Assembly (NCBI RefSeq): GCF_002854065.1
Contig: NZ_CP024147.1
DNA from: Escherichia coli
GTDB taxonomy: Bacteria > Pseudomonadota > Gammaproteobacteria > Enterobacterales > Enterobacteriaceae
Strand: one strand, 5' to 3'
Length of the DNA: 64,000 nucleotides
Under the pieces are notes generated by a model that had not been told where the DNA came from, did not search any database, and saw only the letters and a list, made by a program, of their open reading frames with translations. Positions 33,548 through 36,629 of the stretch are shown one piece after another. The first letter of the stretch is position 1. Each line of letters opens with the position of its first letter. A program made the position numbers and the translations under genes.

Positions 33548-34984
33548 TCAGCGTTTGTAACCCCCGCCCAACGCACCAGTGAGTTGAATGGAGGCATCCA
33601 GCCACTGCCCTTGCAATAACAGGCCATTGGCCCGCTCACGCAGCGCGGGGATTCTGGCTTCGCTGACGCGGGAACCAGCAATGATGCCCGCGTTAAAGCG
33701 GGCCTGCGCAAGACCTACCACACGCAAGGCATCGCGCTCAATTTGCGCCTGATGCTGGTTTTTCTCCGCCAGTGTCTGAACCTGACTGGCTGCCCGCGCC
33801 ACGTCATTCACCGCTTCAACCACCGCTTTGTTGTAGCTGGCGATAGACAAGTTGCTTTCGGCTTTTGCGATATCGAGGTTGGCGTTAAGACGACCACTAT
33901 CGAAAATGGGTAGCGTCAGGCCTGCCGTAACGCCCATTTGCTGCGCGGAATGACGGAACAGATCGCTTAAGTGCAACGCATCCTGTTGCAGGAAGGCCAT
34001 CAGGTTGATGTCAGGATAAAATGCCGCTTTTGCCGCATCAATGGTGCTTAGCGATGACTCAACGTACCAGTGCGCCGCCTGCAAATCTGCCCGCCGGGCC
34101 AGTAAGGAGTACCCCAGTTCATCAGGAAGCTGGCTTGCCACTTTCGGCAACGCGACCGGTTTAAGCTTCAATGACTTTGTCTGGTGATTTGTAAGTGCGC
34201 TTAACCGTGCCTCAATAATTTTCATTTTCCCCGCGACATCGTTGAGCTGCTGCCGGGTTTTGCTGGCATTAATATCGGTTTCCACACCTTCAACTGAAGA
34301 AGTAATCCCGTTCTGATATAGCTGACGATCGGTCGCGATAATGGTGTTCTGCTCTTTTTCTATTTGCTGCAAGACCGTGTTTAACGCCGCCTGGGTTTGC
34401 CACTCCCAGTACAGGCGGGCTACGCTGCCAGCCAGCAATTGGCGGGTTTGCTCGCGTTCCGCCGCCCGTGCTTTAACCGTACCCAGGCGGGCAGTAACCT
34501 CCGCCCGATTCTTTCCCCAGATATCGAGATGCCAGCCCGCCGTTAAGCCAAAAGTTCCGTTGGTGTACCACGGACCGGTCGTACCTGCGGCCGGATCGTT
34601 CAGAGCAAACGGCCCCATTAGCCCTTCTGCCGACATTTTTTGCCGCTCCATATCCGCAGAAAAGTCGATCTGCGGACCATCCTGAGTGGCAATTGCCTTC
34701 GCCTGGGCTTCAGCTAGCTGAATGCGCTGTTCAGCCACCTGCATATCCGGTGCGTTCTGTAGTGCATTGTTAATTAATGAAGTGAGTTGATTATCGTGAT
34801 ACTCCAGCCACCATTGGCTGTCTGGCCAACCATTTTTCAGCGCCGTGGGTAATGCGGTGTCAACTTGTGCAGCGGGCGTTTGCTGGCTTAACGCCTGGCG
34901 GGTTTCATGCATAGGCGCACACCCGGTCAGCATCAGTAACAGCGGAAAACAGGCGATGGCTGGATAAAAGGAATCACGATTCAT
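33548..34984 (-). CDS. mdtQ: Outer-membrane efflux lipoprotein (NodT/OMF family); reading frame intact here
   Basis: Translation MNRDSFYPAIACFPLLLMLTGCAPMH... (lipobox LTGC); single uninterrupted 478-codon frame after start trimming. Confidence 0.8.
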   Translation of the reverse strand: MNRDSFYPAIACFPLLLMLTGCAPMHETRQALSQQTPAAQVDTALPTALKNGWPDSQWWLEYHDNQLTSLINNALQNAPDMQVAEQRIQLAEAQAKAIATQDGPQIDFSADMERQKMSAEGLMGPFALNDPAAGTTGPWYTNGTFGLTAGWHLDIWGKNRAEVTARLGTVKARAAEREQTRQLLAGSVARLYWEWQTQAALNTVLQQIEKEQNTIIATDRQLYQNGITSSVEGVETDINASKTRQQLNDVAGKMKIIEARLSALTNHQTKSLKLKPVALPKVASQLPDELGYSLLARRADLQAAHWYVESSLSTIDAAKAAFYPDINLMAFLQQDALHLSDLFRHSAQQMGVTAGLTLPIFDSGRLNANLDIAKAESNLSIASYNKAVVEAVNDVARAASQVQTLAEKNQHQAQIERDALRVVGLAQARFNAGIIAGSRVSEARIPALRERANGLLLQGQWLDASIQLTGALGGGYKR

Positions 34985-35207
34985 GGGGGAATAATCAGGT
35001 AAGAAAAGGTGCGCGGAGATTACCGTGTGTTGCGATATATTTTTTAGTTTCGCGTGGCAATACATCAGTAGCAATAAAACGACATATCCAGAAAAATATA
35101 CACTAAGTGAATGATATCTTCCGATTTATCTTAATCGTTTATGGATAACGGCAAAGGGCTTCGTTTTTTCCTATACTTATTCAGCACTCACAAATAAAGG
35201 AACGCCA

Positions 35208-35291
35208 ATGAAAATTATACTCTGGGCTGTATTGATTATTTTCCTGATTGGGCTACTGGTGGTGACTGGCGTATTTAAGATGATATTTTAA
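35208..35291 (+). CDS. yohP: Small membrane protein (27 aa)
   Basis: ATG at 35208 preceded by aaagg; translation MKIILWAVLIIFLIGLLVVTGVFKMIF* recognised as YohP. Confidence 0.75.
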   Translation: MKIILWAVLIIFLIGLLVVTGVFKMIF

Positions 35292-35359
35292 AAATCAGAT
35301 ATGACATATAAGTTGTCAGGTCAGGAACTAGATATTTTGTGTACTTGATTTGCAAACAG

Positions 35360-35620
35360 CTCCGGTGTTGGTGGCGTCAAAATCGCTGAAGCGTTCCCCG
35401 AAGGCCGGGGCAGCCCACATGGATGTGGGCTGAGGGCGCGTCTTACAAGGACGTTTCCTCGCGCCCGACCCGGTAGCCGAAGGGGATAAGCTGAAGGTAC
35501 CGCGCAGCGGCGATTTTGTTCGCCAGAGCCCGGGGGTGCAGGGGGAGGAGGCGATTGTCCTCCCCCTGCGCGCTCCTTGCGCCAGTGGCAATATGTGGCT
35601 TAGCTCATGAAAGGAGCGCA
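35360..35620. other. GC-rich, hairpin-rich intergenic element of unassigned function between yohP and dusC
   Basis: Perfect inverted repeats cagcccacat/atgtgggctg (35411-35432), gcagggggagga/tcctccccctgc (35538-35569) and gcgctcctt/aaggagcgc (35570-35578 / 35611-35619); composition unlike flanking DNA. Confidence 0.4.
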
Positions 35621-35678
35621 ACAAGATGATGAAGCTGAATAAGCGATTCATTGTCTCTGATAAACTGCGATTCCACTA

Positions 35679-36629
35679 TTATCGCAGCTTATCGATATCA
35701 ATTGCCTGAATAGCCCTTGCAATATCATGGGAATTATTCAACACCCGAACATGCTGAAATAATTCCGTTGCTTCATCGTATTCTTTACGCAAATAACCCA
35801 ACCACTGTTTAATCCGCGCTACGTGATATAACCCGGTATCGCCCTGCTTTTCCAGACGGGTATATTTTTGCAGCAAAGCAACCACCTCCGGCCACGGCAT
35901 TCGCGGTTCGTTATATTTTACCACCCGGCTCAGGTTGGGAATATTGAGCGCCCCGCGACCAATCATCACTGCGTCGCAGCCGCTGATCGCCATGCATTGT
36001 TGCGCACTCTGCCAGTCCCAGATTTCACCGTTGGCAATCACCGGAATATTCAGCCGCTGGCGAATATCGCCAATCGCCTGCCAGTCAATATGCTCCGCGC
36101 GGTAACCCTGCTCTTTTGTCCGCCCATGCACCACCAGCTCCGTAGCGCCAGCCTGTTGAACCGCATCGGCGATTTCAAATTTCTTCTCACCGCTGTCCCA
36201 GCCCAGACGCACTTTCACGCTGACGGGCAAATGCGCCGGTACAGCTTCACGCATCGCTTTTGCCCCCTGGTAGATGAGTTCAGGATCTTTGAGTAACGTC
36301 GCGCCGCCGCCGCTACCGTTAACCGTTTTTGACGGGCAGCCGCAATTGAGATCCACGCCCCAGGAACCTAACTCCACCGCACGGGCGGCGTTCTCTGCCA
36401 ACCATTGCGGGAACTGGCCTAACAACTGCACGCGCACCAGCGTACCGGATGGTGTCCGGCTGGCGTTTTGTAGCTCAGGGCAAATGCGATGAAAGACTTT
36501 TACCGGCAGCAGTTGATCCACCACGCGGACGAACTCGGAGATGCACAGATCGTAGTCGTTAACTTCGGTCAGCAATTCACGCACCAGAGAGTCAAGCACT
36601 CCCTCCATCGGTGCCAGTAACACACGCAT
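35679..36629 (-). CDS. dusC: tRNA-dihydrouridine synthase C
   Basis: Translation [37 protein letters not shown]...; start trimmed from the 338-aa ORF. Confidence 0.9.

Follow-up and report, generated by a model that had tools for sequence, protein, structure and literature searches.

What is the GC-rich, hairpin-rich DNA that separates the convergent genes yohP and dusC in Escherichia coli? The question was raised by a 64,000-nt stretch of contig NZ_CP024147.1 (assembly GCF_002854065.1), hereafter designated the window, for which an earlier note proposed that the intergenic element between these two genes might be the structured leader of a small regulated peptide or, alternatively, the insertion of a member of a repeat family. 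Our analysis indicates that the element is very probably the dusC-proximal copy of the TRIP1 repeat, known as TRIP1c or RRS-dusC, in an orientation naturally inverted with respect to that of E. coli K-12. In this assignment, the AAGGAG motif resembling a Shine-Dalgarno (SD) sequence is one arm of a stem of the repeat and the 27-codon open reading frame (ORF) that follows it is a by-product. The element itself is already named and experimentally studied in K-12.

The features on which the earlier note relied were all recovered from the sequence. The GC content is 64.0% across positions 35360-35620, against 51.4% over the whole window. The three inverted repeats are perfect, and a longer imperfect inverted repeat surrounds the first part of the element. 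The AAGGAG motif is located 9 nt ahead of the ATG codon of the 27-codon ORF, which overlaps dusC by 31 nt since the dusC ORF ends at position 35679. No annotated feature is present under the element in RefSeq.

Comparison with complete E. coli genomes revealed the identity of the element. A megablast search with positions 35340-35625 (286 bp) returned matches in 5425 of the 5426 genomes, with a median of 3 places per genome (range of 1 to 8); no further copy was found within the 64-kb window. In K-12-type strains, the best match falls between lysO and aqpZ, and a second copy is located between yohP and dusC, on the strand opposite to that of the window copy. The latter displays 91.7% identity over 290 nt with K-12 TRIP1a and 88.6% identity over 272 nt with the reverse complement of K-12 TRIP1c. 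The TRIP1 family was described by Rudd (1999) and re-surveyed by Li et al. (2024; PMC10888264), who list TRIP1a between aqpZ and ybjE/lysO, a partial TRIP1b at putP, TRIP1c between yohG and yohI/dusC, TRIP1d between alx and sstT, and TRIP1e between copA and ybaP. The window copy is intergenic, downstream from dusC (yohI) and beside yohP and mdtQ (yohG), which is the location of TRIP1c, and its GC content falls inside the range of 62-65% published for TRIP1 and RRS. The two full TRIP1 copies are also the "Replication Risk Sequences" (RRS) RRS-lysO and RRS-dusC, 222-bp GC-rich repeats studied by Pham et al. (2023, PMC10287960; 2024, PMC11194060); the core of RRS-dusC in K-12 is defined as the region 58-281 bp downstream from dusC (PMC11194060).

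The window copy thus shares with TRIP1 its sequence family, its locus, its length class (about 270 bp), its GC content and its predicted "double-Y" fold (PMC10888264), and with the RRS a G-quadruplex (G4)-type motif on one strand and extensive folding of both single strands (PMC10287960, PMC11194060). It differs from the K-12 reference copy in its orientation, in its linker sequences and in the C-terminus of DusC, although the essentials are alike. The genome search advocated in the earlier note therefore returned a known dispersed repeat, in which no ORF is conserved, and bore out the alternative of a repeat-family insertion.

We aligned 20 full-length copies originating from five E. coli loci or haplotypes, E. 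albertii, E. whittamii, other Escherichia, Kluyvera, Pseudocitrobacter and further Enterobacteriaceae (89% mean column identity). The consensus fold obtained with RNAalifold comprises 77 pairs in 13 helices, with an outer stem, a junction with two neighbouring hairpins, a perfect 12-bp hairpin over the G-rich tract, and a 3' stem. Standard pairs occupy 99.0% of the pair cells of the alignment, against 40-45% if the partners are slid by 1 to 3 columns. Compensatory double changes were detected at seven pairs, a number reached in 0 of 500 column shuffles. For the window copy alone (positions 35351-35639), the minimum free energy of the RNA was -148.3 kcal/mol, against -116.8 +/- 5.6 kcal/mol for 200 dinucleotide shuffles, none of which was as good (z = -5.65), and that of the minus strand was -132.5 kcal/mol (z = -5.44). 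Thus, both the folding and the covariation checks that had been proposed revealed structure in excess of chance.

Two of the compensatory pairs (202-217 and 205-214, C-G to A-U in comparison to K-12) are located in the hairpin that overlaps the G4 motif, the arms of which are GGCGGC/GCCGCC in K-12 and GGAGGA/TCCTCC in the window copy. The folding energies of the two strands also differ. In 20 of 20 copies, and whether RNA or DNA parameters are used, a more stable fold is obtained for the sense strand, defined as the strand bearing the G4 motif, than for the complementary strand (mean of -136.8 versus -124.0 for RNA and of -76.6 versus -73.0 for DNA), in agreement with the stronger polymerase block published for the G4 strand of the RRS. 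The pair cells of the consensus contain 105 G.U or G.T pairs versus a single A.C pair, an asymmetry that is partly circular, as the structure was predicted on the sense strand, and that is equally expected for folded single-stranded DNA (ssDNA) or RNA.

Table 1. Coordinates of the repeat, its substructures and its neighbours. Positions are those of the window unless preceded by an L-number, which designates one of our comparison loci.
Feature	Coordinates	Strand	Remarks
Full TRIP1c copy	35352-35640	+	Sense (G4-bearing) strand is the + strand of the window; same locus as in K-12, inverted
Equivalent of the 222-bp RRS-dusC core	35366-35587	+	Pairwise alignment to K-12 (L005 2057-1834)
5' domain	35378-35518	+	Outer stem 35378-35393/35503-35518 (longer imperfect inverted repeat) around the two-hairpin junction; TwoAYGGAY-like fold; from inverted repeat, minimum free energy and consensus
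Hairpin 1, CAGCCCAC-AUGGAU-GUGGGCUG	35411-35432	+	Perfect inverted repeat CAGCCCACAT/ATGTGGGCTG (35411-35420/35423-35432); invariant in 20 of 20 copies; helix 8, 9 unvarying pairs
Hairpin 2, GGGCGCG...CGCGCCC	35434-35466	+	Tip ACAAGGACG (ACAGGGAUG in K-12); helices 9-10
G-quadruplex-type motif GGGGGTGCAGGGGGAGGAGG	35532-35551	+ only	Regular-expression scan of both strands; K-12 version GGGGGTGCAGGGGGCGGCGG
Perfect 12-bp hairpin	35538-35569	+	Perfect inverted repeat GCAGGGGGAGGA/TCCTCCCCCTGC (35538-35549/35558-35569); overlaps the G4 motif; helix 12
3' stem GCGCTCCTT/AAGGAGCGC	35570-35619	+	Perfect inverted repeat (35570-35578/35611-35619); AAGGAG (35611-35616) in the 3' arm; helix 13
27-codon ORF	35626-35709	+	Begins in the last bases of the repeat and extends through the linker into the 3' end of dusC; judged fortuitous
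Haplotype-specific cassette	35295-35691		Repeat and both linkers; replaces the K-12 cassette (L005:1746-2124); pairwise alignment
Head-to-head paralogue	L016:2190-2380	+	Beside TRIP1 (L016:1868-2135, - strand); likewise at L065:4104-4167
yohP	35208-35291	+	Small membrane protein; upstream neighbour; ORF list and RefSeq annotation of identical DNA
dusC	35679-36629	-	tRNA-dihydrouridine(16) synthase; convergent neighbour; ORF list and RefSeq annotation of identical DNA

The GGAGGA/TCCTCC variant of the G4 hairpin is not confined to the window, as it was also found at different loci and in different species (L045 and L084). This distribution suggests gene conversion between copies or parallel compensatory change.

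The RRS have been studied as obstacles to replication. In K-12, according to PMC10287960 and PMC11194060, the two RRS are located about 650 kb on either side of dif, flanking the Ter macrodomain, and at each of them the G4 strand serves as template for the lagging strand. The same papers report that the RRS block DNA polymerases in vitro, that post-replication gaps of at most 2 kb bound by RecA and SSB are formed at the RRS in vivo, that deletion of both RRS requires a compensating 200-kb amplification, and that the RRS influence global supercoiling. The G4 motif and its polymerase-blocking activity are described in PMC11194060, as is the behaviour of engineered inverted RRS, which do not produce a RecA/SSB peak at the inverted site and yet complement the loss of the other copy. 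In a single-molecule assay (Pham et al., 2026 preprint, 10.64898/2026.06.16.732529), the C strand on the lagging-strand template blocked about 66% of the encounters, and the G4 strand nearly all of them.

The scan of both strands of the window copy for G4-type motifs returned a single motif, on the + strand and placed as in the published RRS, and none on the - strand. At the sequence level, the copy therefore carries the single one-strand G4 tract of the RRS, two bases off the published K-12 tract (GGAGGAGG here, GGCGGCGG in K-12). The GC skew of the + strand is negative throughout the window, as it should be on this replichore, indicating that this strand is the leading-strand template. Since the order and orientation of the genes (mdtQ on the - strand, yohP on the + strand and dusC on the - strand) are unchanged in comparison to K-12, and since the repeat is reverse-complemented, the G4 motif is on the leading-strand template, unlike in K-12. 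The window copy thus lacks the native K-12 configuration, which is not a requirement for membership of the family, and matches the engineered inverted RRS. Natural inversions are not discussed in the passages of the RRS papers that we searched, which treat the K-12 arrangement as native.

These considerations lead to the following model. The single strands of this non-coding GC-rich DNA element of about 270 bp would fold into a very stable multi-hairpin structure. Published K-12 experiments show that a folded G4 strand, when it templates the lagging strand, stops the polymerase and leaves an ssDNA gap loading RecA and SSB. In the window copy, the C-rich strand is the lagging-strand template and the G4 strand the leading-strand template. 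By analogy with the published inverted constructs, this copy would be a weak trigger of gaps, or none, and would still provide the orientation-independent function that lets inverted copies complement deletions.

The inverted arrangement is not a peculiarity of the window. The window haplotype (at least 80% of a 901-nt query covered) was detected in 1998 of the 5426 complete genomes (about 37%). Polymorphism of orientation in place was also observed for the other full RRS copy, between lysO and aqpZ (L004:2440-2860 versus L001:2440-2860), where the K-12 arrangement is present in 4029 genomes and the reverse in 982 (about 18%), O157:H7 being among the latter. Because O157:H7 has only two TRIP1 places, each of the reverse type, both of its RRS are reversed in comparison to K-12. 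Strain SY3626 (NZ_CP059283.1; L088:15998-16417) matches the window without a single difference over 901 nt (100%) and has a K-12-type lysO copy. In a genome of this type, the full RRS pair therefore forms direct repeats flanking the terminus, with one G4 on each kind of template; according to a published statement, there is always at least one inverted pair. Of the 6725 genomes surveyed by Li et al. (2024), 2952 carried TRIP1c in one orientation and 2789 in the other, counts that the authors did not relate to replication (PMC10888264).

The RRS model based on the native orientation describes K-12 but fails to describe a large fraction of natural E. coli. In strains resembling the window, only one of the two full copies has the "active" orientation. 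O157:H7 has both of them in the reverse orientation, for which engineered K-12 strains displayed an altered supercoiling landscape and no RecA/SSB peak. Such natural strains allow a test of the relief-valve hypothesis.

The DNA that distinguishes the two haplotypes is a cassette consisting of the repeat and both linkers. Its breakpoints are conserved, one just past the yohP stop codon and the other within the last codons of dusC. The C-terminus of DusC is haplotype-dependent (positions 35679-35750, - strand), ending in IDIDKLR in the window and in AIQAIDIEKL in K-12. Inversion of the whole cassette was tested and rejected, as reverse-complementing the K-12 linkers does not yield those of the window. 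Compared collinearly, the left linkers show weak homology (z = 2.27; 34 of 1000 shuffles did as well) and the right linkers none, and the alleles at lysO-aqpZ show the same linker pattern. We conclude that there are two deep alleles with largely unrelated linkers, resulting from an ancient in-place inversion or from independent replacement.

Several observations weigh against the assignment as we formulate it, or against parts of it. The proposed gap behaviour of the natural reversed copy is extrapolated from engineered K-12 strains and an in vitro assay, and the G4 motif of the window differs from that of K-12 at two positions (GGCGGC to GGAGGA). If formation of gaps by a lagging-strand G4 were the selected function, neither a reversed allele at a frequency of 37% nor lineages with both copies reversed, such as O157:H7, would be expected. 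In addition, about 270 bp of structure conserved by compensatory changes exceeds the needs of a G4 alone. Part of the conserved function may therefore be other than gap formation. Finally, the sequence by itself leaves translation of the 27-codon ORF possible.

The latter possibility was the one favoured by the earlier note, in which a structured leader would hide the SD sequence of a regulated 27-residue peptide, similar to a type I toxin and convergent with dusC. The position of AAGGAG within a 9-bp stem and 9 nt ahead of an ATG codon is compatible with this proposal, as is the retention of an ORF of 26-27 codons in E. coli E69, E. whittamii and Escherichia sp. E1V33. However, the ORF was retained only in these close relatives, which have the repeat at the same locus and in the same orientation (92-98% identity). 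The changes in the retained ORF are mostly non-synonymous (D to N, K to M and I to L), with one synonymous change in the E69 copy, and the last 31 nt are dusC coding sequence, hence constrained by dusC regardless. In contrast, the stem and its SD-like arm are conserved in the repeat at no fewer than five loci and in other genera. The 7 pairs of helix 13 (GCGCTCC/GGAGCGC) are present in 100% of the cells of the 20 copies, with wobble changes only, so the AAGGAG arm is a feature of the repeat and not the leader of the ORF. The peptide that follows AAGGAGCGC is changed or missing in all the other copies, the K-12 allele of this locus among them. Dissimilar peptides of 5 to 17 residues, or no ATG codon, were found at this position: MMNQHITTS at K-12 lysO, MNQYI in another lysO allele, only MRD at the corresponding ATG codon of the K-12 dusC allele, a dissimilar 17-mer in Kluyvera, and no ATG codon within 40 nt of the arm in several copies.

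The peptide is basic, with 6 Lys or Arg residues and no hydrophobic stretch, as the earlier note had remarked for hydrophobicity. It has no match in NCBIfam and is absent from about 15 billion recorded proteins. No sigma-70-like promoter and no intrinsic terminator were predicted on the + strand across the locus; the sole promoter-like site, on the - strand (35307-35280), is no more than shuffled sequences yield. The repeats of type I toxin-antitoxin systems from the same K-12 survey (LDR/ldr-rdl and QUAD/sib-ibs) resemble TRIP1, as they are intergenic, multi-copy and structured and contain a short ORF or lie close to one. In these repeats, a hydrophobic small ORF is present in every copy and is overlapped by an antisense RNA, whereas the ORF of the window is outside the repeat, unconserved and not hydrophobic. 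Because the peptide is unconserved and belongs to no family, with no protein record and no + strand promoter, a toxin or a regulated peptide is unsupported, and we consider this proposal to be hardly credible. On the basis of these sequence comparisons, the 27-codon ORF is most likely an accident of the end of the repeat meeting this particular flank, and it is not worth pursuing as a toxin or as a regulated peptide.

The dispersion and the two orientations of the repeat could also be attributed to past transposition of a non-autonomous element resembling a miniature inverted-repeat transposable element, the window copy being an inert relic rather than a functional sequence. The repeat is indeed dispersed (1 to 8 copies per genome), its minor loci are occupied in just 3-23% of the genomes (PMC10888264), two loci show both orientations, a 60-nt fragment is carried by a plasmid, and a composite repeat of Edaphovirga (see below) is present in 11 copies. 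These observations are offset by the near-universal presence of the dusC and lysO copies in E. coli, by conservation of 84-98% over Escherichia, Kluyvera and Pseudocitrobacter with compensatory changes that keep the fold, and by published genetics indicating conditional essentiality. Moreover, the junctions show no evident target-site duplication, and no transposase was found in association with the repeat. When the 5' end was compared with the reverse complement of the 3' end, no significant terminal inverted repeat emerged (z = 1.48; 97 of 1000 shuffles as good), and terminal inverted repeats were accordingly discarded as a substrate for inversion or transposition. An inert relic is therefore very unlikely. 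REP/BIME and the enterobacterial palindromic repeats provide a related comparison, since they too are GC-rich extragenic sequences that form hairpins, lie between convergent genes and can mediate rearrangements. From their descriptions, TRIP1 is set apart by its far greater length, very low copy number, fixed loci and specific replication phenotype.

The remaining alternative is that the element acts as a structured RNA, in addition to or in place of its role as DNA. The Rfam search suggested in the earlier note returned no family above threshold. The sole match, obtained with permissive thresholds, was to TwoAYGGAY (RF01731), an orphan motif described by Weinberg et al. (2010), at positions 35377-35516 (25.9 bits; E = 0.19), short of the gathering score (43 bits). 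A proposal that TwoAYGGAY RNAs bind CsrA has been published, without experimental evidence (PMC4333381). Accordingly, the hairpins with GGA-containing loops would bind a protein such as CsrA, within a transcript that would be a sense-strand 3' extension of yohP in the window haplotype, where yohP is transcribed in the direction of the sense strand of the repeat, and of dusC in K-12. Several lines of evidence are consistent with this proposal. TwoAYGGAY was the only Rfam match, to the full model and on the sense strand, for every TRIP1 copy tested (25.9-30.9 bits, the copies other than that of the window scoring 29.8-30.9). The two structures have in common an outer stem around two neighbouring hairpins, AG between the hairpins and loops containing GGA. 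Hairpin 1 and the following GAG belong to a 27-nt segment that recurs unchanged in bona fide TwoAYGGAY RNAs of Lachnospiraceae (72-79 bits). A diverged paralogue located head-to-head with TRIP1, about 55 nt away, in Pseudocitrobacter faecalis and Kluyvera sichuanensis scores above the gathering threshold (49.2 bits), and compensatory changes distinguish both of its hairpins from their TRIP1 counterparts. Relatives in Edaphovirga reach 41-42 bits. The excess of G.U over A.C cells fits a fold on one strand, and no terminator is predicted from yohP to the element.

Other observations argue against this proposal. All TRIP1 scores are under the threshold, and they are partly due to the very hairpin used to retrieve the relatives. 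The loop of hairpin 1, AUGGAU, fits AYGGAY, but that of hairpin 2 is AAGGAC (AGGGAU in K-12), with a purine at position 2, and TRIP1 extends 3' into a further domain of about 120 nt containing the G4 hairpin and the SD-like stem. The G.U asymmetry is equally expected of ssDNA of the G4 strand. The absence of a predicted + strand promoter also argues against a dedicated transcript, and the orientation of the element with respect to its neighbours flips among strains, so there is no fixed transcript context. The genes dusC and ybjE are listed as negative and non-significant in the K-12 CsrA CLIP-seq and RNA-seq supplementary tables, in which intergenic peaks may be unrepresented. Finally, the RRS phenotypes are directly explained at the DNA level. 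An RNA function of the TwoAYGGAY type thus appears unlikely, and TRIP1c as a replication-related DNA repeat remains the preferred assignment.

The resemblance to TwoAYGGAY nevertheless merits description. In sequence and predicted fold, TRIP1 resembles the TwoAYGGAY type, to which it may be related, but its scores are below the threshold for membership and we treat the likeness as a lead. An exact 18-mer scan of 100,044 species genomes (one per species) with hairpin 1 as the query (GCCCACATGGATGTGGGC) detected full TRIP1 only in Escherichia, Kluyvera, Pseudocitrobacter and two further Enterobacteriaceae. Edaphovirga cremea harbors 11 copies (L052-L062) of a composite repeat of about 750 nt, with two divergent GC-rich TwoAYGGAY-like arms (41-42 and 31.5-32 bits), an AT-rich spacer and variable 3' ends, which has the appearance of a TRIP1 relative that is mobile or multi-copy. 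A conserved element of Shewanella (L007, L013, L030, L080 and L081; 28.7-30.6 bits) contains the exact hairpin GCCCACAUGGAUGUGGGC and another whose loop is CAGGAUG, with a G/C-rich hairpin lying downstream. A multi-copy repeat in a metagenome-assembled genome of Thiotrichaceae (L031-L034) has the same exact hairpin and is otherwise unrelated. The G4 tract was considered as a trait of a TwoAYGGAY-like family and rejected, as it is consistent in TRIP1 only and absent from the Shewanella and Thiotrichaceae elements. Many other 18-mer matches were discarded as unrelated, some of them coding for PTWMWA (Rhizobiaceae, Methylobacterium and Nitrososphaeraceae). On this basis, TRIP1/RRS could conceivably be the enterobacterial branch of a wider TwoAYGGAY-like family, represented in Lachnospiraceae, Shewanella and Edaphovirga and by the head-to-head paralogue of Kluyvera and Pseudocitrobacter, in which the fold is selected on one strand and the function would be provided by the folded sense strand, as RNA or ssDNA, independently of orientation, rather than by lagging-strand G4 gaps. 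We regard this extension as speculative, with a small chance of being correct. If true, it would imply a conserved role, for example as a protein-binding RNA with GGA hairpins or as ssDNA. The TwoAYGGAY-like fold is in any case a lead joining an orphan Rfam motif to a DNA element with a phenotype.

Three further observations concern the repeat and its surroundings. The 107-codon ORF that spans the repeat on the - strand (35328-35651), considered probably spurious in the earlier note, exists but has no NCBIfam family and has been deposited only as a "hypothetical protein" in some GenBank records of O157 (e.g. ECSP_3011 of O157:H7 TW14359), supporting the view that it is likely an annotation artefact of the GC-rich repeat. 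Plasmids account for just 8 of the 17,478 TRIP1 matches; one of these is a 60-nt fragment of the 5' region (96.7% identity) in a 243-kb E. coli plasmid (NZ_CP194962.1, positions 204426-204485). Upstream from yohP, mdtQ is a single unbroken ORF in the window (33548-35074, - strand) and a frameshifted pseudogene in K-12 MG1655 according to RefSeq.

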